DNA of 50,200 nucleotides, counting the filler, from Stramenopiles sp. TOSAG23-3 (taxonomy: Eukaryota), in the NCBI GenBank assembly GCA_900128585.1. It is 4 parts of 4 records of this genome, joined end to end, with 100 filler letters (N's around TTAATTAATTAA, not from the genome) between each part and the next. Parts side by side here need not be neighbours in the genome. Positions count along the whole stretch, not along the records: positions 1 to 22,987 come from LT642320.1; 3 more parts are not named here. The stretch is one strand, 5' to 3'. Positions 1,377-31,515 of this stretch are shown one piece after another (positions within the stretch are counted from its first letter, which is position 1; each line of letters opens with the position of its first letter). The translations under genes and the position numbers were made by a program. The notes under the pieces were generated by a model. The model was not told the origin of the DNA and did no database searches. It saw only the letters and a program-made list of their open reading frames with translations.

Positions 1377-2939
1377 CTAGGCCGAAGGCTCCACCTCTGG
1401 GGCGACGTCCTCTGCGCCCACGGCGTCCAGGGAGCTGCTGGGTTTAGAAGGCTCCATCAACACTAAAAATTCGTCAAAATCAATGACACCATTGTTTTTC
1501 AAATCTGCACTCTTTAAAAATTCTGTGATTGCTTCTTCGCTGTAGACCTTCCCTGCAATCTTCTTCAAATTTTCCACGGAAATGAACCCAGATTTGTCCT
1601 TGTCTAGGCGGTCGAAGGCCACCCGCAAGGAATTCTTCTCCAAAAACCCACTGGTGTCCGCCGCGGCCGCTAAGAATTCCCCGTAATGGATTTTTCCCGT
1701 TCTGTCGAAATCGAGAGAGTCAAAAATGTTTTCCATGTCCTCAGTTGACAAGTTCTCCTGCTCCTTCAAAAGGGTCATCAGTTCCTCCCGGTTCAGGGTC
1801 CCCGAGTTGTCCACGTCTATGTCCGCGAACGCCAGCTGCAACTTTTTCATCTGCGCCCCATCCAAGGTGTGGGCGACTGCCATCATGGCCATCTTCTTCA
1901 CTGGGGAAAACTTAGCGTACTCGTTGATGTTCTTCAGCACGTCGTGATGGATTATAGACATACGCTTGGCCCCTATCTTTGTTTTGTTGGTCGTGAACCA
2001 CGGGTGTTCCAACGCCTGCGAGGCCGACAGTCGCTTGGCCGGGATCGGCTCCAGCATCTGCTGGATGAAGTCCTTGGCTTCGGCGGAAATGCTTTTCCAG
2101 CAACTGGCGTGGAACGAGAGCTTGGTGTGCTGCTGGACCTTCTTCAGCGTCTCGGACTGGTTTCGCCCTTGAAAGGGGACGCGGCCGACTAAGTACAAGT
2201 GGGCCAACACGCCGATCGCCCAGACGTCCACTTTTTCCGTGTAGTTCCCCGTCAAAATTTCCGGCGCGACGTACACTGGCGTCCCGCACATCGTCTGCTT
2301 GGCGCGCGAACCCCACAGGCTCATGCTGCTGGTCGGCGTTATCTTTCCGATGCCAAAATCGATCAGCACTATGCTATCGCGTTCCCCCGTGCGAAAGCAG
2401 ACGTTTGCAGGCTTGATGTCCCGGTGAATAATGTCGAACTTGTGGCAGTACGAGACCGCCGAGACCAACTGCCGGATAAGCTCGCAAATTTTCTTCTCTG
2501 TGAACTCTTCCTTCCGACCCTTGTACGCGTCGTACAAATCCCCCCCTTCCAGAAGTTCCATCACTAAATCCATCGTCGTGTCGCTTTCAAACGTCTCATA
2601 GAGCCTCACGATGTGCGGGTGGTCGAGTTTCTTCAAAAGTGCTACCTCGTTGCGCAGCTCCTTCAGTTGCGCGGTGTCGAGCTTGTCCAAGTTAACGCTC
2701 TTCAACGCAAAGAGCTTTCCCTCCATGGTCTTGTGCTCGACTTTGTAGACCGCTCCAGTTATGCCCGCCCCAAGCTTCTTCACAACTTTGTACTTGTCCT
2801 CCCATATCTGATCACGAATAGTGCCGATCAACTCCCCAAATATTTCCGTGTCTGTCTCCGTCGATTTGCGCGAACGTGAATTTCTGTCCGCGGTGGAGGT
2901 GGAGGTGGTGGTGTCCCCGCCACAAAGTTTGTTCCCCAT
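1377..2939 (-). CDS. Calcium-dependent protein kinase (kinase + 4 EF-hands)
   Basis: GxGxxG (GAGITG), HRDIKPAN, DFG, APE motifs, a junction region and four DxDxxG EF-hands. Likely true start is MGNKLC at 2939 (N-myristoylation Gly2 plus Cys). Confidence 0.93.
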   Translation of the reverse strand: MGNKLCGGDTTTSTSTADRNSRSRKSTETDTEIFGELIGTIRDQIWEDKYKVVKKLGAGITGAVYKVEHKTMEGKLFALKSVNLDKLDTAQLKELRNEVALLKKLDHPHIVRLYETFESDTTMDLVMELLEGGDLYDAYKGRKEEFTEKKICELIRQLVSAVSYCHKFDIIHRDIKPANVCFRTGERDSIVLIDFGIGKITPTSSMSLWGSRAKQTMCGTPVYVAPEILTGNYTEKVDVWAIGVLAHLYLVGRVPFQGRNQSETLKKVQQHTKLSFHASCWKSISAEAKDFIQQMLEPIPAKRLSASQALEHPWFTTNKTKIGAKRMSIIHHDVLKNINEYAKFSPVKKMAMMAVAHTLDGAQMKKLQLAFADIDVDNSGTLNREELMTLLKEQENLSTEDMENIFDSLDFDRTGKIHYGEFLAAAADTSGFLEKNSLRVAFDRLDKDKSGFISVENLKKIAGKVYSEEAITEFLKSADLKNNGVIDFDEFLVLMEPSKPSSSLDAVGAEDVAPEVEPSA

Positions 2940-3715
2940 ATACGTTTGTATGTAGTGAGTGGTAGTAGTGGAGGACGTATGTAGGCGGTCAAGCAGCTCT
3001 CTCGTAGGCTCGTCGTTTGGCCGAAACAATATCTTCTTTAAAACCGTTCGCTGCACAGGAGGTGGCACATTTTCAATTAGCGGTCTGTTGGTCTGGTAAC
3101 AATGTATAGTTTTCAGATTTGGATATAATGTGAATAATACAAAATGTGATGATGATAATTATTTTTTATTATTATTATTATTATTTTTTTAATAATTATT
3201 TTTATATATAAAATTATAATTAATACTACTAGGGGTATTACAATAACACAGGTATTAAAAAACGGGTATTATTTATTATATATATTTTTTATTATACGAA
3301 TTAGCTCATCATGATGTAATTATTAGATTTTTTTTTTTTTTACCAAAAAAAAAAAATAAAAAAGAAGAGGAGAAGAAGAAGATTATTATTAGCCAATTAT
3401 TAGATAGACTATACAGTTTTAAATAGTCGTCTCCTCGTAGTATTGAGAGGAGGGGAGGGGAGGGAAGAAGTAAAATAACTAGAAGATAAAATATAGTTGC
3501 AATAGTACTATATATGGTATTGGTGTAATTATAATTAATACTATTATATAATATATGATAGGTAATTATACATTAGAAATAATAATAATATACAATATAA
3601 TTACTCATAATTAGTAATCTAGATATATATTAGTCCTAGTAAAGAAAAGAGCAAGGGAAGAAGAGACAATGAATCTGAAATCTGAAGAACGAGAAGAAGA
3701 AGTAAAGCTGAATGA

Positions 3716-6716: not shown

Positions 6717-7394
6717 GGCAATACGGTACCATTCATTTAGAATGAATGATGACTACGAGGATTTGTAATGATGATAAAATACCTACCTATTATACCTATT
6801 ATTACATACCTACCTAGATTACCAATCTGCCTATAATTTCCCGTATTATCGTTGGTGGGATAAATATAAAATATTATTATATTCCAATAATACGAGGAGT
6901 CCTCGTATTCCAAGTCCTCTTCGAAAAATGAAAAAAAAATAATTTCATCTTCTTCTTCTATCGATCTTTTTTTTCTCTTCTTTTCTTTCTTTCTTTCTTC
7001 TTCTCTTTCTTCTTTTATTTGTTTTTGTTTGTTTGTGATATAATGACAATGGTGATGATGATGATGATGTTGTTGTTGTTGTGTTTGTTGGTTGGGGAAG
7101 AAGAAGAAGAAAAAGAATATTATGTTGTATTAATAGTCATTATTTATACTACTAGTTCATTCCTGGTTTGGTTTATTAACTAAAACAGATTACAAAAAGA
7201 ATGATGTTCACTTAAGACGTTCAAATTGGCATAAGAAACAGCCAACTAAACCAACTAGATTACTTTTTAGTTGATTAATCCGTTTGATCTGAGTTGTTTA
7301 GTTTCATTGCTCTGTTGCGTTTGAAAAAAAACAACACCCACCCCACTCGAGACATCTGCCTGATTGGCGTGCCCGAACGCGTCATCGTAATCCG

Positions 7395-10300
7395 ATGCAC
7401 CCTCACAATGAGTCGCGGGCAAATACCTACGAAGGCAGGCTTCCTGACCTCAAGCTGGAAAAAAGGTATGTCGAGCTCAAGGAAATGAGTTCCCTGACGT
7501 CTATCCTTGAAAATTCTTCAAGTGGGTCGACGATTGGCACAGAAACCTTGCGTTCGCCCCCCACGTCAGATGGCCCCGCGGACATCTTGCAGCCTCTGAA
7601 GAGTGCCTTTGCTATTACACCCGCAAGCACAACAGTTGATCCTGTCATGTGGCTGACAGAGTATGCGGACAGAATCGACCAGCACCAGGCTGCCATTGAG
7701 GCTGCGTCCGCGTTTGAGGAAATGTGGCGGGCGTCCAATACGAAGGTCCTAGAAGACTGCATCGAAATGAAGGAGAAAATTGAACAACACGTTGAAAAAT
7801 TTCAAGGAAATGTTCCCATAAACAGGCAAAAGGAGCACCTTGAGACGCTTAGGGCAGACTTTAAGGCGCAGCAAGAGGCCAAAAGGGTTGCCGCGGTAAA
7901 CGTGATAAAGGCCAAGGAAGAGCTGAGGCTGGCAGAAGAAAAGTACCGAAAGGCTACGATCCATGCCAGGCGTGTTCGACAGCAAAGTACCATTACGGAA
8001 GACGATCTGAAAGAGAGAGAGATATTGGTCGTGAAGCTGACCGAGGAACTGCCACGGGTGCTGGGCCATTGTGAATCCCTCGTGAGGGACGCCAGCCGGA
8101 AAGCCGAGCTTATCGATGCATTGAAGGAATACTGTGAACGGGCGACGCGGTTCTTGCAGAGTACCATGGACCCGCAAAGTGCGTTTTTGAGAATGGTAGA
8201 GCGGCTGCGTGCCCTCATTGTCCATTCCTCCGAGAACGGCGTCGTGTACAACAAGAACGCGCTGAACAGGGCCATTCACCTGGTCCGGTGCGTATGGGAT
8301 CAAGGCGCTCTGCCCCGTGAAGTTTCAACCCTGGGGAGCTGTATTGCCGCGCCCGATGGTGGAACGAGACGCAAGTTTGCCAACACGGGCAATGCCACTC
8401 ATGTTTATTTCCACGCTGGAGTAGAGCTGCACAATGTTCCCGAGCGGCACGTTGAGCAGGCGTTCAGGGTCACCAACTGTTTGAGGTACTTGAGGCAGCA
8501 CCACAACAGTTCGACTCCGTACTTTATTACTGAAATTACAAAGAGGAACGAAGTTTCGCCTAGTGCAACAATTCTCCGCCTTGTTCATTCCGGGGCCTAC
8601 TTGCAGCGTATCTTTCAAACAGCCGAGGAGGCCGCAACCTCGGCACCAGTCCCAATGGAGGGCTCCGATGACGAGCTGGTCGCCGTTGATATGGAATCGG
8701 AGGGAGAAAACGAGGAATACCACGTAGGCAAGACCTTGGTAAACACGTTTCTTGATGACGCCAGGTGGAAAAGAATTAAATGCGCTCACAAGCTGCACGA
8801 AATTGGGATTTCCTCGGACGCTGATAATGCGGCGCAAGGGCTTGAGGTCGAATACAGTGCTACTGGGGGCCTGGACGGTGCGCCGGCGCAGGAGGGCTCG
8901 CAGGGCTCACTCAAAAATAGTAGCGGCAGGGAAGGGTTGGGAACGTCCCCTGGCGGGAACGGTCGGCAGCATAATAGTGGGACGGCAAGCGCTCCCTCCA
9001 CCACCGATTTTAGCGCGTTAAGAAAGCTTTACGACAATGAGGTAATGAAGGCTATCCAAGGCGTCGATTTTTCCAGCATAAGAAGTTTGAGCCTGAAGCA
9101 AATGCTCGAGTACAGGCTAGTAAGACCGGGGCCGATCCACATTATGTACCGTGGTGTAGTGGTAACAGAAGGGGTGTTTCTTCCGAACGGCAACTTCAGA
9201 GCATTCGGGGAAGAGTACGAAACCCCGTCGGGCATGGCAATGCAGTGCATTCGAAGAAAGTTAAACCCTGATCTTCAATCGATCAGTGGCTACGTCGCTG
9301 TTCACCAAAACGGTTCAAGTCTTGCCTCGATCCGTAATAAATTTTTGAACGCTGTGAAAAAGTATTGCGGGGAAGACACACAGGGTTCGTACGAGGTCTA
9401 CGAGGATCCACCCGATTTTGAAAAAGTTCCTACCAACAATTTCAAATTTTCGCTTTTTGAAAAAGAAATTCAAAACAAAAACATAACGATAAAGCAGTTG
9501 ATCGACAGCGAATTGCTGACGCCTGGCCCAATCACGATATTTTATCACAAAAAATCCGTAGAGGCGGGAACGCTATTGAAGGACGGCACCTTCGAATATG
9601 CGGGGAACGTGTGGCAAACGCCGTCGTCTGTGGCTTTGTATGTAGCTCGAAAAGTGAATCCAGACATAAAAACACTAAATGGATACTCTGCTATAAGGCG
9701 TAAGGGGGTGAAATTAGAGACTTACCGAAAAGCATTCGTGAAAAAACTGAAGGAGGCCCATAGCAAGAAACGAACGGTGCAGGAAACGAGCGAGGAAATT
9801 GAGAAGGAAGAGACTGTGGGAACGGAAGGGCCGGCAGAAAATGTAAAAAACTCTGTCCTTAAGGCAGAGACGGAGACGATGCATCGGAGAAAGGGGGGCA
9901 AAGGGGGATCCCTCTCCCCGCGTGGCAAAGGCTCCCTCACCTCGCGTGGCAAAGGCTCCCTCACTCCGCGTAACAAAGCCCCACTGTCTCCGCGCGTGAA
10001 GGGGAAAGCCAGCACAGAGCCGGCGCGTGTTACCCGAAAAAAGACTAGGTCTCCTGGGAAAATGGAAAGCGGGTGTGGGAGCGGAGACAACGGGGCACTG
10101 CAGTACTGGCTGTTTTTAGGCGGAAAGCTAGCACTGGATCGCGAGTCTTTGATAGAAATTTGGATGAATGACGACAGAAGCGGCAAGACCCACAGTTGGC
10201 ATCGTGCCAAAATCAACCACCAGTGTGGAAAGTACGAGTACAAGTACCATTTTATTGCCGACTCGAACAAAAGATCGTACGTGCTGAATGTGTTGCATCA

Positions 10301-11462
10301 TTTATGGCGCCATGTGAAAGAAAGTGAGCTAGTGGTGAGCCGAACTGGCCGCGTCCGAAAACGTCCCCAGCGGTTTGAGAGTATGCCTAATTTGCCCCAA
10401 CTTGCCTCTAGCAAGCGAAAATTGAAGGACGAGCCAGGGCAACCGGTCGAAAAGAAGAGGCGGTTTGAAGCATATAGCAGACCAACCTACCTAATTGAGG
10501 ATCACGACGACGTCGGTGAAAGAGGCAGCAGCAACAGCAGCGATAGCGATGAAGAGTCAGGCGAGGGTGGGCTTGAGGACACGTTTGTGTCGAACAAGTC
10601 CCACGTTGCATGCATGCAGGCAGCCGGCGTTGTGTGCAAAGCTGTTGATGACATCATGTCGCTCGCTTCCCCCGTCGGCAAAGTGTTCTGCCTTGTCAGG
10701 CCCCCGGGGCATCATGTAGGCCGCTACGGTCGCACAAGTGGCTGCTGCTCGCATGGCTTTTGCTTGGTAAATAACGTGGCCATTGGTGTCATGAAAGCCA
10801 AGGTTGACCACGGGTGCAAGCGTGTTGCAGTCGTTGATTTTGATGTTCACTTTGGGAACGGAACCTATGAAATTTTTGAAGAAGACGACGATACACTGTT
10901 CATATCTGTGCACAAGGCAGACACTGGCGAAGGGGATGTCTTCTTTGGCTCAGACTTGCCAGGCGTCGATGACGTTAGCCGACAAAACATTTGCATATCT
11001 ATTGATGGGGGGATTCAGAAACCTAACCACCGTGGAGGTCGCCAGAACTTCACAGAAGCGTTTCAAAAGACTGTTTTTCCAGCCCTGGTTAACTTTGACC
11101 CCGAAATTATTTTTCTCTCCTCCGGTTTTGACGGTCACATGGATGACCCTTTAGGTGGGCACTTGGGGCTGCGCCAAAAAGATTTCAAGGAGCTGACGGA
11201 ACATATTGTTCGGATTGCGGAACGCCCAGGTGGATCTTGCAACGGTCGCATTGTGAGCGTGCTCGAAGGCGGTTACGATGCCAACAGAAAGAACGGGTCG
11301 TTGCAAAAATGCGTAAATGCCCACGTCAAAGCCCTGTGCATACCGTCCAGCAGAGAGGAGAATGCAGCAGGGGGTTCCGGGGGACAGGATGCCGGGACTT
11401 CAAAAGGCACGACCAGTGGAACAAGTGGTATTGAGAAAACGAGTTTTATTCGTTGTGTTTGA
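7395..11462 (+). CDS. Class II-like Zn-dependent histone deacetylase with N-terminal coiled coil and a large insertion (2 RAMA-like domains, Tudor-like module) splitting the HDAC domain
   Basis: C-terminal motifs RPPGHH, GFC..NNVAI, DFDVHFGNGT, SSGFDGH and LEGGY are intact. The N-terminal HDAC motifs 'HNVPERHVEQAFRV' and 'ILRLVHSGAYL' lie ~650 aa upstream. Confidence 0.88.
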   Translation: MHPHNESRANTYEGRLPDLKLEKRYVELKEMSSLTSILENSSSGSTIGTETLRSPPTSDGPADILQPLKSAFAITPASTTVDPVMWLTEYADRIDQHQAAIEAASAFEEMWRASNTKVLEDCIEMKEKIEQHVEKFQGNVPINRQKEHLETLRADFKAQQEAKRVAAVNVIKAKEELRLAEEKYRKATIHARRVRQQSTITEDDLKEREILVVKLTEELPRVLGHCESLVRDASRKAELIDALKEYCERATRFLQSTMDPQSAFLRMVERLRALIVHSSENGVVYNKNALNRAIHLVRCVWDQGALPREVSTLGSCIAAPDGGTRRKFANTGNATHVYFHAGVELHNVPERHVEQAFRVTNCLRYLRQHHNSSTPYFITEITKRNEVSPSATILRLVHSGAYLQRIFQTAEEAATSAPVPMEGSDDELVAVDMESEGENEEYHVGKTLVNTFLDDARWKRIKCAHKLHEIGISSDADNAAQGLEVEYSATGGLDGAPAQEGSQGSLKNSSGREGLGTSPGGNGRQHNSGTASAPSTTDFSALRKLYDNEVMKAIQGVDFSSIRSLSLKQMLEYRLVRPGPIHIMYRGVVVTEGVFLPNGNFRAFGEEYETPSGMAMQCIRRKLNPDLQSISGYVAVHQNGSSLASIRNKFLNAVKKYCGEDTQGSYEVYEDPPDFEKVPTNNFKFSLFEKEIQNKNITIKQLIDSELLTPGPITIFYHKKSVEAGTLLKDGTFEYAGNVWQTPSSVALYVARKVNPDIKTLNGYSAIRRKGVKLETYRKAFVKKLKEAHSKKRTVQETSEEIEKEETVGTEGPAENVKNSVLKAETETMHRRKGGKGGSLSPRGKGSLTSRGKGSLTPRNKAPLSPRVKGKASTEPARVTRKKTRSPGKMESGCGSGDNGALQYWLFLGGKLALDRESLIEIWMNDDRSGKTHSWHRAKINHQCGKYEYKYHFIADSNKRSYVLNVLHHLWRHVKESELVVSRTGRVRKRPQRFESMPNLPQLASSKRKLKDEPGQPVEKKRRFEAYSRPTYLIEDHDDVGERGSSNSSDSDEESGEGGLEDTFVSNKSHVACMQAAGVVCKAVDDIMSLASPVGKVFCLVRPPGHHVGRYGRTSGCCSHGFCLVNNVAIGVMKAKVDHGCKRVAVVDFDVHFGNGTYEIFEEDDDTLFISVHKADTGEGDVFFGSDLPGVDDVSRQNICISIDGGIQKPNHRGGRQNFTEAFQKTVFPALVNFDPEIIFLSSGFDGHMDDPLGGHLGLRQKDFKELTEHIVRIAERPGGSCNGRIVSVLEGGYDANRKNGSLQKCVNAHVKALCIPSSREENAAGGSGGQDAGTSKGTTSGTSGIEKTSFIRCV

Positions 11463-11617
11463 TGCAGCAGACGGCACGCGTGTTAATGTTTTGGTTTTAA
11501 TTTTTGTAAGTATGATATCATGGTCATACGGACTCTTATAAGAATAATGTCCCGTATGAATATGATATGATTTTTAAGTCTCGCACATTTATATTGGTAA
11601 ATTGGTCGCGTAACGCT

Positions 11618-12523
11618 TCAAAGTCTAGATTGGTGGTGAAAATACCCTTCGGCGTTTGATATAACTACTTTTCCCGTTTCCTTAACCTTCGTCTGTATGA
11701 TCACGCGTCCCGGGGTGGATGCATCTACCCACATATTGACCTGTAAAGTCTGGCCTGGCATGACGGGGGAAGCAAAGCGCAGGCCAATTGATTTGAAGTT
11801 CTTTCCAGTATTCCCGCAAAAGTTCTTCACAAAGGCCCTTGAGGTAAATCCTAAACTGCACAAGCCATGTAAGATTGGCCCTTTGGGGAACCCCATCATC
11901 TTGGCAGCCACAGGGTCAACGTGCAGTGGGTTGTAATCCCCGGAAAGTCTGTATATTTGCGCCTGGTTGTGCGGTACCTTCATTTCTTCCACCACGTCCG
12001 GCGCACGCTTTGGGGTCTTGATTTTCTTTGCAAAATTTTCGCCCGAGTCGGTAAACCCTTTCTTGGCTCCTACCAAAAAGGTTCCACTCCTCATGCGATA
12101 GTACAAGGTTCCACTCGCATCTTCCAGCAGCGCTTCCATCTGGACGGTAGCCCCCGACCCTTTCTTTTGTATGCCAGCAAGTCGTTGGCGCAGGACCAAC
12201 TTGGCTCCACTCTTCGGGATCTCGTTCACTTTTTCAATGTAGCGTTCGCCGTCCAACCCTGCAACAACCCCGGGCAGCATAGGCATTTTGGGCCCCTCCC
12301 CCATCGCTTTTGATGGGAATGTCACGACGTCTTGGTCCGTTCCTTTAAACGACAACACAATCGGAAACGTTGGAAAGGCTTCAAATTGTTTGTTGTTTTC
12401 GTAAACAAAGTTCAGTTCCTCGCAACCAATCCCTACCGCATACGTCAAGAGATCTCGCCGGAGGTAAGACACGTCTTGCGTGGTCCATTTGTTCAGGAAC
12501 TTGTTCGTATCAATGTCCGTCAT
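11618..12523 (-). CDS. Peroxisomal enoyl-CoA hydratase 2 (double hot-dog / MaoC-like)
   Basis: Hydratase-2 motif 'YRLSGDYNPLHVDP', 'PILHGLCSLG', 'FASPVMPGQTL'; C-terminal PTS1 'SRL'. ATG at 12523. Confidence 0.92.
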   Translation of the reverse strand: MTDIDTNKFLNKWTTQDVSYLRRDLLTYAVGIGCEELNFVYENNKQFEAFPTFPIVLSFKGTDQDVVTFPSKAMGEGPKMPMLPGVVAGLDGERYIEKVNEIPKSGAKLVLRQRLAGIQKKGSGATVQMEALLEDASGTLYYRMRSGTFLVGAKKGFTDSGENFAKKIKTPKRAPDVVEEMKVPHNQAQIYRLSGDYNPLHVDPVAAKMMGFPKGPILHGLCSLGFTSRAFVKNFCGNTGKNFKSIGLRFASPVMPGQTLQVNMWVDASTPGRVIIQTKVKETGKVVISNAEGYFHHQSRL

Positions 12524-12929
12524 GTTGCAGTAAAATGACAGTATAATCAATGCTGGTAGAGAGCCTGGTACGTTTCTTGCTTTTTAATTTTAGATGGACA
12601 ACTATCTGTTCGTTTGACCTGTTATTTGCGACTGTTGAGACAACAAAAAATGTGCAATTTTGTTTTTGACCTTCTTTTTTTGTTTTGCCACACGCCACCA
12701 CCAATACCTCCTCCTCCTCAACCTCTCCTCTTCTTCTCTCTGCCTCTCTCTCTGCTGATGCTGCGCTGCCCTAAGGATCTGATCCGACTTCGGTTCGTCG
12801 GGTTCGTTTTTTTAATATTTTAATCACAAAGAATAAAATCTTTTTCTTCTTTTTCCTTCTTGTGTTGATGTTTTTTTTTCATGTTTTATCAGTTCTTCCT
12901 CTGCTGTTACTGTATATTTTTTATTATTA

Positions 12930-28679: not shown

Positions 28680-31515
28680 ATGGAGGTGCTGAAACGGTGG
28701 CTGCTGCGGGGCATTTTTCTTGCACTTTTTTTGGACGCGGCGCGGGGAGCTTGGGGGGGTACTGGTGTAGTTAAGAATCCTTACAAGAGGTATGCGACGT
28801 CCTACGATGGCGTGGTTGATGCTCCGAAGGCAATAGAAGAGAGCCTGCCCCGGGACGACCTTACGACGAAAGGTCTCAACGGGAAAGTCCTGCAAGTGGG
28901 AACGATCGTCCGGGCCCAGTGGCGGCGGGGGGAGACGTGGTACACGGGGCATGTAGATTTAGTGAACCCTGATGGCACAGTAGATATTCAGTTCGATGAC
29001 GGCGACTACGAGTGGTTTGTTGAGCCCGAGTTCGTGAAGAAGCTGGAAGGGCGGAAGAAACGGGTGGTAAAGGCGGACAAACCCTTGGCCCGGCCGGAGC
29101 TGAAGCACTTTATGAGCAACGTAGACTATGCGCTGTACGGCGCAAAAAAAACTTTGCCGCGACGGGGAGAGCTGCGGTTTACTAGGGACAAGTCTGGGGT
29201 TGGGGGGGGCGCCGGTGCATCCCTTGAGGAGCTGGGCGCGAGCCTGGATGAGGAATATCTTCTTGAAATGTCGACCGACGACAAGGAAATGAAGTGGCTG
29301 GTCGCCGCGTCCCAGGCTAAGGCCAACAGCACTCAATGTGGGCGTGGGCACTACGGCCTCGGCGTTGTACATATGATGGAAGACCGCAAAGCCCAAGCCA
29401 TGAAACACTTCCAACGTGCTGCAGACTGCGGTAACCCCGCCGCCCAGAGGGTGCTTGGCCTATCCTTTGGCGGGCATCATAAGGCCATGACTGCGGACTG
29501 GACAGGCGACGGTGGGGAGACGGACACGGCCGCGTCGGGCCCGGCGAGTCCCGTCGACGGGGGGCTGACCGCGAAAGCAGTCTTGCACCTGTACTTTGCC
29601 GCCATGGGCGGGGATGCCCCTGCGCAGCTAGCCCTTGGAACGAAGCATCTCTACGGCCGAGGGGTTCCAAAAAAGTGTACCGCTGGAGTTGTGTACCTCC
29701 AGGCCGCCGCACAGGCCGCTGTGCAGAGCGTGGAAGACCGGGGGCAGGAGAACATTGTCGAATCGATCCTCCTGTCGGAGCAGATCAGCGACGGTCTGAG
29801 CGGGCGGCGGGCCCGGCGACGGAACGGCAATGGGGGGGGGGGACGGGGACGGGTTGCAGGATGATATCGTCCAGTACCTCAGCTACGCAGCTCGAAATGG
29901 GGACGACTCTGCCCAAACTTCTCTTGGAGAAATTTTTTATTTTGGCATTCGGGGAATACGGCGAGACGCAGTGAAGGCCCGCAAGTACTTTGAGCTGAGC
30001 GCGAAGCAAGGGAACGAGCGCGCGATGGCGATGCTGGGGCACATGTACACCAGGGGGCATGGGGTGGAGGCCGATAATGCAACGGCGCTGTCCTGGTTTG
30101 AGAAAAGCATTGAGAAGGACGGGAAGACCGCGCATGCCCACCTCGGCATGTTTTACCTGTTCGGGCTGGGCGTGAAGCGCAACGTGACAAAAGCCCGCGT
30201 CCATTTTCAGCACGCGGCCAACGGGGGGGAGGCAGGCGCCATGCACGGCCTTGGGGTAATGCGAATCAAGGGGCTGGGCGTGCGTCGCGACTACAAAAAA
30301 GCCCTTCAGCTGTTCCAGCGAGGGTCGCGCCAAGGCCACACCTTGGCCCAAAACAAACTTGCTCAAATGACGCTGTTCGGGGTTGGGACCTCGCCGTCGT
30401 GTGAGGACGCCGCCAAGTCCTTCAAGAGCGTTGCGGAGAAGGGCCCATGGTCCATCAAGCTTCAAAAAGCGTACCGCAAGTTCCAACAGGGCGATTCGCA
30501 TGCGTCCCTCTGGCTTTACCAAATGCTGGCGGGCGAAGGGTACAGTGTGGCAGAAAGTAACGTCGCGTTTTTGCTCGAGCAGGAGGTCGTGAAGTCTCTG
30601 GCGCCCCTAACACAATTAAAGCGCGCTATCTTGCGTTCTCAGACGTTAGGGAACGTTGGGAAAGCCGTGGGTTTGGTGGCAGACGAGGAGCTCCCCAAAG
30701 GGTACTTGGATCAAACTGCCGAGCACAGCGTTGCTTTTTACAGTCTCGCTGCTGAGCAAGGATCGTCCCAAGCTTACGTGAAAATGGGGGACATGTTCTA
30801 CTTTGGGTTTGTTGGAAAAGACGACAAGGGCCTGTTCGACTTCAAGAAGGCGGTCTCGCATTACACCATGGCCTCGAAGGCGCGAAACGGCCAAGGTCGG
30901 TTCAACCTGGGGTACATGTACGAGCATGGGCTAGGCGTGAAGCAAGACCTGCATTTGGCAAAACGATACTACGACGAAACAAAGAGTCTTGACCCAGAAG
31001 GGTTGATGCCGGTGTACCTGGTCCTGTTCCGCATGCGGTTGTGCAAGGCATGGCAAAGCCTGTCGAACAGAGTGTTTCGAACCGGCAGTTCAACGGACAA
31101 GGGGGGTTCAGAGAAGAAAAACGTCCAAAAGAAACTTTTCTCGAAGGACGAGGCCGGGCTCACCATCAAAGCAGGGTCGGTTGTCACTGCCCGATGGAAA
31201 GGGCGAAAGCACTATTACAGTGGCTACGTTGCGCAAGTAAACAATGATGAAACTGTAGACATACAGTACGACGACGGTGACTTTGAACACAACGTACAGT
31301 CCCGGTACATCAAACGGAAGCTTCCGGATGCGGTACACCCGTCGTACGGCAAAAGCCTGGAGTCAGACCCGGAAGGAAAGCAGGGTGGTACCGGAATGTT
31401 TCGCCTTCCTTTATTGTTAAACGGCGACGAGTCTGTGTTGGTTCTGGCCGTAACGTGCGCTTTCGCTTGGGTTGTGTACATGACGTGTGTGATGATTGCA
31501 ATTGCAGTCGATTAA
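28680..31515 (+). CDS. SEL1L: SEL1L/HRD3-like ERAD component with two Tudor-like modules; frameshift in G-homopolymer at 29832-29842
   Basis: SP; 'KAVLHLYFAAMGG..AQLALG', 'DDIVQYLSYAA', Sel1 repeats, 'FKSVAEKGPW', 'AESNVAFLLE', 'QDLHLAKRYYD'; C-terminal TM. ORFs 28665-29864 and 29830-31515 join if the 11-G run is 10 G. Confidence 0.85.

Follow-up and report, generated by a model that had tools for sequence, protein, structure and literature searches.

The 50,200-nucleotide (nt) stretch of DNA analysed here, which we call the window, joins four parts of the Stramenopiles sp. TOSAG23-3 assembly GCA_900128585.1 and contains, in the part from record LT642320.1, a gene for a histone deacetylase (HDAC) whose catalytic domain is split by a large insertion carrying two tandem RAMA domains (short for Restriction enzyme Adenine Methylase Associated) and a third folded module. 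The gene is an uninterrupted open reading frame (ORF) of 4068 nt on the + strand, at 7395..11462, that encodes 1355 residues (aa) without an internal stop, and its start is backed by an alignment in which conservation with two homologues, P0003 and P0004, begins at the first residues. The anatomy of the protein, the conservation of that anatomy and the integrity of the catalytic residues are shown by the comparisons below, and the reassembly of the two deacetylase pieces into one domain is predicted. Taken together, we think that this is probably one real, expressed, intron-less gene for a competent class II deacetylase, which a reader-carrying loop within its own catalytic domain would recruit to nucleosomes. 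The features of the gene, all on the + strand, are the following.

7395..11462, +: the complete gene, one ORF of 1355 aa (the range includes the stop codon) in which no intron was detected (independent DNA contig, RNA contigs)
7395..8390, +: N-terminal region, aa 1-332, conserved in the family (aligned in P0003 and P0004)
8397..8627, +: HDAC N-piece, aa 335-411, which supplies the initial strand-helix elements to the deacetylase fold (family profile, AlphaFold2 model)
8628..9089, +: linker 1, aa 412-565, acidic and Ser/Gly-rich, predicted to be disordered (model confidence below 50, composition)
9090..9365, +: RAMA module 1, aa 566-657 (Pfam scan of the module alone, BLASTP match to module 2, AlphaFold2)
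9486..9758, +: RAMA module 2, aa 698-788 (Pfam; phmmer and VIA matches to MPND chains)
9759..10094, +: linker 2, aa 789-900, Lys/Gly/Ser-rich, predicted to be disordered (model confidence below 50, composition)
10098..10331, +: third insert module, aa 902-979, a helix and a five-stranded, Tudor-like barrel (AlphaFold2, fold comparison)
10338..10403, +: basic motif 3' of the barrel, aa 982-1003 (conserved in 4/4 family sequences)
10404..10574, +: linker 3, aa 1004-1060, charged and Ser-rich, predicted to be disordered (model, composition)
10575..11339, +: HDAC C-piece, aa 1061-1315, catalytic core bearing the His dyad, the Zn ligands and the catalytic Tyr (Pfam, phmmer)
11340..11459, +: C-terminal Gly/Ser/Thr-rich tail, aa 1316-1355, unconserved (model confidence below 50)

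Homology searches found this architecture in only three other, diverged lineages, represented by P0003 (1368 aa, 43% identity), P0004 (1618 aa, 36%) and P0005 (41%, with the full-length cluster mates P0132 and P0145). The order of elements is colinear in all lineages of the family and runs from the N-terminal region through the N-piece, the two RAMA domains, the third module and the basic motif to the core. The insert modules rank with the most strongly conserved stretches of the family alignment, a pattern that one would not expect from an intron or a chimera. An HMMER scan of 1.84 billion representative proteins with aa 330-1060 as the query (E<=1e-3) returned 56 matches, among which only P0003 and P0004 have the full architecture and nearly all others match the RAMA modules. 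One additional match, the 221-aa representative P0153, covers the N-piece only (query residues 6-112, 43% identity) and could be a piece of another member of the family, or of a fourth lineage. Among the relatives a single taxon label exists, on a EukProt fragment ('Stramenopile-MAST_4') that falls within the 90% cluster of P0003. According to a run index the gene occurs in marine and seawater data sets, with candidate occurrences in 9 studies besides the possible source.

The split of the deacetylase is seen most directly in the Pfam Hist_deacetyl family (PF00850), which matches aa 1053-1311 over profile positions 62-295 of 298 (E 5.2e-55; 187.3 bits, cut-off 27.9). The first ~60 profile positions are missing beside the core, and the corresponding N-terminal elements stand 654 residues upstream. 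A hidden Markov model (HMM) of the N-piece, built from four family members and searched against 116 non-family HDAC proteins, gave 28 domain rows at E<=10 and reached E<0.01 in 11 proteins. Five of these 11 are contiguous HDACs (P0036, P0072 from Peronospora, P0103, P0105 from Aphanomyces and P0113) in which the match lies 49-115 aa upstream of the start of the core HMM, that is, at the normal N-terminus of the domain; as a control, four of the five have a Pfam match that runs from profile position 1, and that of P0036 starts at position 30. In the remaining six (P0109, P0083, P0028, P0115, P0104 and P0076) the gap to the core is 799-1312 aa. AlphaFold2 was run on aa 330-1355 with an alignment of 18 sequences and gave a mean predicted local distance difference test (pLDDT) score of 57.2 and a predicted template modelling (pTM) score of 0.42, with pLDDT values of 55-88 in the N-piece and 79-95 in the core outside three loops. 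MAFFT misaligned the N-termini of the contiguous HDACs, and for the N-piece these rows contribute no information to the alignment used in folding. VIA-align placed model residues 5..987 on residues 2..306 of 5ji5 with Z 35.2 and an rmsd (root-mean-square deviation) of 2.7 over 287 of 305 residues, and the model superposes similarly on HDAC6 CD2 and HDAH (Z 33-35 to 5ji5, 8szt, 5li3 and HDAC6 CD2). Because 287 residues are aligned and the core comprises only ~256 residues with three low-confidence loops, the N-piece is needed in the modelled fold, and both pieces are thereby predicted to form one complete arginase/deacetylase fold.

An earlier, sequence-only reading of this DNA had proposed that an HDAC domain is split here by an insertion, and the Pfam start at position 62 together with the N-piece HMM and the AlphaFold2 model, which reunite the pieces in one predicted fold, agrees with that proposal. 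Its assignment of N-terminal deacetylase elements held in a modified form, in that Pfam does not match the N-piece alone and the identity of the N-piece comes from the family HMM and the fold model. All motifs that it quoted lie where it placed them: the N-piece has its first motif at 8397 and its 'LVHS' helix at 8571-8612, modules 1 and 2 occupy 9090-9365 and 9486-9758, the C-piece starts at 10575 and the last core helix ends at 11336. It had also described the Zn ligands, the His dyad and the catalytic Tyr as intact, and in a phmmer comparison of the core with HDAC6 chains (E ~1e-56) the dyad H1106/H1107, D1150, H1152, D1246 and Y1294 align with identical HDAC6 residues and are invariant in 4/4 family sequences. 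We take the catalytic roles of these six residues to be those known from the HDAC6 literature; class IIa enzymes lack the catalytic Tyr. The insert rejoins the core at an invariant E1061-D1062-T1063, aligned with the start of an HDAC6 segment that presumably holds a residue contacting the substrate backbone.

Two side features of the core lie close to these residues. At 10710-10763 (aa 1106-1123) a 13-residue loop between the His dyad and the GFC motif, with a His and two invariant Cys side by side, exceeds the HDAC6 loop in length; it is present in 4/4 family members and has low pLDDT, and a related motif appears in the alignment of split and oomycete relatives. This loop could form a second metal or redox site near the active site. 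At 10836-10865 (aa 1148-1157) the ligand His is followed by a family-invariant Phe (F1153), where HDAC6 has a second His.

The first two modules of the insert are RAMA domains of the type found in MPND, as the sequence-only reading had recognised and as the Pfam matches and the phmmer, Foldseek and VIA matches of module 2 to MPND now document. Over the whole protein Pfam RAMA (PF18755) matches two stretches (E 9.3e-22; 77.4 bits, cut-off 35.2). When the modules are scanned alone, module 2 is secure at 54.7 bits (E 1e-14) and module 1, at 34.5 bits (E 2e-8), falls slightly below the same cut-off, so that the family assignment stands for the protein and for module 2 and is just missed by module 1 in isolation. 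The two modules match each other in BLASTP (E 1e-23, 34% identity over 93 aa), and because of the Pfam matches and this mutual match we regard the observation as real and far beyond chance. Module 2 finds the MPND chain 7ydt_A with phmmer (E 6.9e-8) and superposes on MPND 7ydw_A with Z 14.1 and rmsd 1.7 over 87 of 92 residues at 33% identity; Foldseek against the solved MPND RAMA gives E 1.8e-6 with template modelling (TM) scores of 0.84-0.86. Its similarity to the C-terminal domain of CcrM (6pbd_B) is at the level of fold (Z 11.2, rmsd 2.5, 86 residues aligned, 13% identity). Module 1 is modelled with pLDDT 96-98 and the same order of strands and helices as module 2, and the fold searches gave no separate row for it.

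The positions through which MPND meets DNA are retained in both modules. The reported DNA-backbone contacts of MPND are S113, S115 and W135 (PMC9963953), which align in the phmmer alignment with T742, S744 and Y764 of module 2; the module 1 equivalents are T610, S612 and Y633, invariant in 4/4 family sequences. Such substitutions as occur are conservative, and within the family these residues are either invariant or aromatic. Over 48 aligned RAMA sequences the three columns hold S/T in 42, S/T in 45 and an aromatic residue in 47. The 54 nearest RAMA relatives are eukaryote-type proteins annotated with RAMA (50), JAB (11), Prok-JAB (9), zf-CW (2) and ankyrin repeats (1), and their domain annotation shows an HDAC domain in none of the 54. 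A JAB/MPN domain has no Pfam match in our protein at E<=1.

The sequence-only reading had filled the insert with the RAMA pair, which is there as claimed, and had overlooked a third conserved folded module at aa 902-979. This module is modelled as a helix and a five-stranded barrel (pLDDT 73-86), is conserved in 4/4 family sequences and has invariant W935, Y949 and W971, with F or Y at position 953; these aromatic residues are candidates for a cage that would hold methyl-lysine or methyl-arginine. In VIA, model residues 344-418 give Z 6.2-7.3, a middling range, to Spindlin1, FMRP, SETDB1, SGF29 and the RDM15 Tudor domain, and the structural neighbours at ranks 4-50 are almost all Royal-family folds, including SAWADEE, PWWP and chromo-barrel domains. 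Foldseek matches are weak (E 0.05-0.2), and ESM features of aa 895-1005 score 0.75-0.84 to Spin-Ssty and Tudor clusters, where values below 0.9 serve as a lead only. In Pfam the region 10050-10400 matched no family at E<=10, Tudor, Agenet, chromo, MBT and PWWP included. Because the Z-scores are middling, Pfam gives no match and the ESM scores stay below 0.9, we use 'Tudor-like' for a fold-level lead and not for membership of a family.

The insertion site itself is not confined to the RAMA family. At least ten other protist HDACs (P0104, P0076, P0081, P0120, P0109, P0083, P0028, P0115, P0056 and P0035) are split at the same loop, with the N-piece 504-1373 aa upstream of the core and a Pfam Hist_deacetyl match that begins at profile position 46-69 in 10/10. 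The cargo between the pieces includes PHD in P0104 and P0076, BRK in P0081, and zf-CW with an HMG box in P0120; Pfam finds RAMA in 0/10. A MAFFT alignment shows N-piece motifs common to six of them (P0109, P0028, P0115, P0081, P0056 and P0035). In a FastTree of the cores, a clade with support 0.863 unites the 14 split proteins with P0078 and P0036; the RAMA family is a subclade of it with support 0.999, and contiguous oomycete enzymes are sister. A second insertion in the core, of ~70-245 residues between core-HMM positions ~120 and 150-157, occurs in P0109, P0083, P0115, P0104, P0076, P0120 and P0078, and the RAMA family is without it. Thus, the loop appears to serve the whole clade as a site for inserting exchangeable chromatin-reader cargo, of which RAMA-RAMA-barrel is one version, and the presence of PHD, BRK and zf-CW with HMG cargo at the same loop points to a general reader-insertion site rather than an invention specific to N6-methyladenine (6mA).

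Published work on RAMA domains and on 6mA frames how such a protein may operate. RAMA owes its definition to an association with adenine methylases, and its occurrence in stramenopiles, together with many chromatin partners, has been reported (PMC4738411). For the MPND RAMA, one study reports sequence-independent binding of double-stranded DNA with a dissociation constant (KD) of 1.5 uM that is unaffected by 6mA, binding of histones as well, and a structure in which DNA contacts are made to the backbone only, with no base contacts (PMC9963953), and another reports selectivity of the MPND RAMA for 6mA duplex DNA that the MYSM1 RAMA does not share (PMC6591016). AMT1-dependent 6mA is described in stramenopiles such as Aurantiochytrium, in linker DNA beside H3K4me3 nucleosomes, where it marks active, acetylated 5' regions, and the same source names the readers of eukaryotic 6mA as a key unknown (PMC12695648).

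The working that we favour for this enzyme is modelled on MPND with regard to DNA binding. In this view the loop that leads, at the surface, from the initial ~80 residues of the deacetylase fold to the core has been expanded by ~650 residues into three folded modules joined by disordered linkers. The RAMA pair would anchor the enzyme on double-stranded, possibly linker, DNA through backbone contacts of the [S/T]-P-S and G-aromatic motifs, the Tudor-like barrel may bind a histone tail that could be methylated, and the tethered core would then deacetylate the same or a neighbouring nucleosome. Because the insert rejoins the core at E-D-T, in what we take to be the substrate-contacting segment, the readers would be suspended beside the active-site rim and might also gate access.

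The physical integrity of the gene was compared with contigs of four runs from 3 studies, consisting of one independent DNA run and three RNA libraries (two studies), and these data bear on the prospect that the insert is an in-frame intron or a mobile insertion, or that separate HDAC and RAMA genes were fused by misassembly. A metagenome DNA contig of 4829 nt from another study is colinear with the window over 7947-11900 with 7 differences. RNA contigs lie inside the insert at 8620-8934, 8962-9128, 9183-9354, 9286-9538, 9632-9791, 9764-9994, 9986-10180, 10088-10418 and 10249-10533, those at 10448-10781 and 10501-10671 bridge the boundary between insert and core, and no splice joint or indel was found in the RNA contigs over the insert and its 3' boundary. 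An artefact would be helped by the blindness of Pfam to the N-piece alone, by the seemingly very small size of the data sets behind the source assembly (runs of 7-12 million letters) and by the fragmentary RNA cover; it would nonetheless have to accommodate a reading frame open over 4068 nt, five conserved blocks in the same order in three other lineages at 36-43% identity, with the insert modules among the best conserved, and an HDAC core that, lacking the first ~60 profile positions, is incomplete unless the upstream piece is added. We therefore hold an artefact to be very improbable, and neither splicing-out of the insert nor a misassembly fusion, both of which the sequence-only reading had named as threats to its interpretation, is borne out by the jointless RNA contigs, the colinear homologues and the DNA contig. 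RNA cover breaks off just past the stop codon, at 11471-11499, and begins again at 11551-11595, within the convergent neighbouring gene, and the DNA contig crosses this gap; these ends are a weak hint of real transcript ends.

The sequence-only reading had proposed a link from 6mA to histone acetylation within one polypeptide; in its full form the RAMA pair would specifically read ApT 6mA laid down by an AMT1-type methylase and couple this mark to local histone deacetylation. The modules are of the MPND type, for which selective 6mA binding has been reported (PMC6591016), RAMA is tied to adenine methylases and reported in stramenopiles (PMC4738411), and a tandem reader with a Tudor-like barrel would fit AMT1-dependent 6mA that adjoins H3K4me3 nucleosomes in some stramenopiles (PMC12695648). 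Against this, MPND binding to DNA was unaffected by 6mA and involved no base contacts in the other study (PMC9963953), the MYSM1 RAMA is without 6mA selectivity (PMC6591016), recruitment of a deacetylase to 6mA at acetylated 5' regions needs an extra rationale, and sister proteins carry PHD, BRK or HMG at the same site, so that on balance we find specific 6mA reading unlikely. Its most elaborate form, a one-chain effector of the 6mA pathway in which the RAMA pair reads ApT 6mA in linker DNA, the barrel reads H3K4 methylation on the adjoining nucleosome and the core, with the readers at its active-site rim and activated or brought into place only once both marks are bound, then trims acetylation at the 5' ends of transcribed genes, appears more doubtful still. 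A different possibility is that the protein is a non-catalytic scaffold, or a deacetylase of non-histone or small-molecule substrates such as acetylpolyamines, in which the modules localise or regulate the enzyme, for example by autoinhibition that DNA relieves. HDAC6, HDAC10 and bacterial acetylpolyamine amidohydrolases are among the PDB matches and bring in relatives that deacetylate tubulin or polyamines, entry of the insert beside the active-site rim would make gating plausible, and the 13-residue loop with its two invariant Cys and low pLDDT is specific to the clade. The invariance of all catalytic residues, Tyr included, speaks against a scaffold, and three modules of nucleic-acid or histone type, the PHD, BRK, zf-CW and HMG domains of the relatives and the reported binding of double-stranded DNA and histones by the MPND RAMA (PMC9963953) speak against a role away from chromatin; we rate this possibility, in either form, as quite improbable.

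Recruitment of a catalytically competent deacetylase to nucleosomes by its own loop is the reading that we retain, and several points weigh against it. Chromatin is an unproven target, since class II deacetylases presumably also act on tubulin and polyamines, and for this protein we infer each of DNA binding, histone binding and deacetylation. The N-piece alone (8382-8700; aa 330-435) matched no Pfam family at E<=10, and with an alignment of 18 sequences, mean pLDDT 57 and pTM 0.42 the model does not place the domains reliably relative to one another, and how the N-piece packs is predicted. The Tudor-like assignment of the third module is weak at Z ~7 with no Pfam match. Among the split relatives, P0081, P0056, P0035 and P0120 are matched weakly by the N-piece HMM (E 0.39-3.4), and the assignment of the first three rests mainly on the MAFFT alignment, which left out P0120; the core tree is a quick one of 26 sequences and 257 columns whose rooting on four HDAC6 domains is assumed. 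The RNA contigs are assembled metatranscriptome of depth 2-7 with patchy cover that excludes 7000-8147, and thus the first ~750 nt of the ORF, and such libraries can contain DNA.

Several characterised systems share parts of this design. MPND (7ydt, 7ydw) resembles it in RAMA fold, sequence and DNA-contact positions and shares the logic of a RAMA joined to an eraser-type catalytic domain, and Iyer et al. related RAMA-JAB proteins to MYSM1 enzymes that deubiquitinate histone H2A (PMC4738411). The partner differs, in that MPND has a JAB/MPN domain with one, terminal RAMA, whereas here two RAMA domains are nested in the catalytic domain of an HDAC. CcrM (6pbd) shares a RAMA-like fold and differs in being bacterial, in carrying that fold on a methyltransferase and in having 13% identity. 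HDAC6, HDAC10 and bacterial HDAH/Kdac-type enzymes have the same core, His dyad, Zn ligands and catalytic Tyr; their domains are contiguous, whereas ours has the ~654-residue insert and the longer Cys loop, and in HDAC6 the accessory ZnF-UBP lies outside the catalytic domain according to precomputed Pfam labels. The nearest named proteins in the core tree are the oomycete enzymes P0072 from Peronospora effusa, which combines PHD, AP2, HDAC and Med27, and P0105 from Aphanomyces astaci. The oomycete HDACs resemble our protein in the motif of the loop that follows the His dyad and in combining an HDAC with chromatin or DNA readers, but their deacetylase domain is contiguous (Pfam from position 1), their readers lie outside it and they have no RAMA. 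At the level of function, Set3C and Rpd3S follow a similar logic, as a reader of a transcription-linked mark guides a deacetylase to nearby nucleosomes. Those are multi-subunit complexes of class I or Hos2-type enzymes with the readers on separate subunits, whereas in the protein described here a single chain holds the readers nested within the catalytic domain.

We found no description of a RAMA-HDAC protein, or of a reader cassette nested in an HDAC domain, in the literature, where figures and supplements of architecture surveys may hold one, and this agrees with the statement of the sequence-only reading that no RAMA-in-HDAC architecture was known to it. Deacetylases are not mentioned as RAMA partners in the main text of PMC4738411, and the text of a preprint on chromatin evolution (10.1101/2021.11.30.470311) shows no RAMA-HDAC or split-HDAC architecture, which its figures or supplements may hold. 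Precomputed Pfam labels already pair PF18755 with PF00850 for the family proteins, so that automatic databases hold the co-occurrence. The architecture combines known kinds, reader-fused HDACs and RAMA-eraser fusions, and is not categorically new; it is the nesting of a 500-1300-residue reader cassette in an HDAC loop that differs from the terminal fusions and multi-subunit complexes of model organisms, and that may inform the design of engineered targeted deacetylases. As an expressible chain of RAMA, RAMA, Tudor-like barrel and HDAC, the protein offers a concrete candidate on which 6mA discrimination by RAMA domains, and its possible output downstream, could be probed. If one-chain 6mA reading were true, it would be the first identified effector of eukaryotic 6mA, and the protein would also exemplify allosteric readers nested in an HDAC catalytic domain, a design reused in a protist clade with PHD, BRK or HMG cargo. 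With only two other clusters sharing its architecture among 1.84 billion representatives, the gene also shows the diversity of chromatin enzymes in uncultured marine protists.

Outside the deacetylase and its reader modules, the protein is less readily annotated. The N-terminal region (aa 1-332) has only sub-threshold Pfam matches and no known domain by that search, and an ESM Atlas search with aa 60-330 returned no usable match. Linker 1 starts with an acidic motif (aa 420-429) that is conserved in the family. Within linker 2, at 9894-10007 (aa 834-871), short basic repeats of Gly-Lys-Gly-Ser-Leu-Ser/Thr-Pro/Ser-Arg with Ser/Thr-Pro-Arg units are found that are absent from P0003; the Ser/Thr-Pro-Arg repeats presumably resemble minor-groove-binding or kinase-site motifs.

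The surrounding genes encode a calcium-dependent protein kinase (CDPK)-type kinase, a tubulin-tyrosine ligase, an MFE-2-type hydratase, a GTPase, Fcf2, EF-1 beta, a Myb protein and a member of the importin-beta family, and no DNA methylation gene is among the annotated genes of the window. A prokaryotic or contaminant origin of the sequence was considered and rejected on these neighbours, of which the CDPK-type kinase, tubulin-tyrosine ligase, Fcf2, EF-1 beta, Myb and importin-beta family genes are eukaryotic. The relatives of an exportin-like neighbour are two metagenome proteins and one distant mollusc match, which do not help to place the organism. Convergent with the HDAC gene, at 11618-12550 on the - strand, lies the gene for the MFE-2-type hydratase 2 (MaoC dehydratase and MFE-2 hydratase N domain), whose stop codon is ~155 nt from that of the HDAC; the RNA contigs of both genes end short of each other. 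The CDPK-type gene occupies 1377-3068 on the - strand and encodes a kinase domain followed by four EF hands. An ORF at 29830-31515 on the + strand contains five Sel1 repeats and a sub-threshold match to Tudor_3 (Crb2-type; 23.2 bits, cut-off 25.8). The window as a whole is compact, gene-dense and apparently intron-poor, with 28 ORFs of >=200 aa, some of them overlapping on opposite strands, and its spacers are AT-rich, with a GC content of 0.25-0.34 against 0.45-0.60 in the coding stretches.

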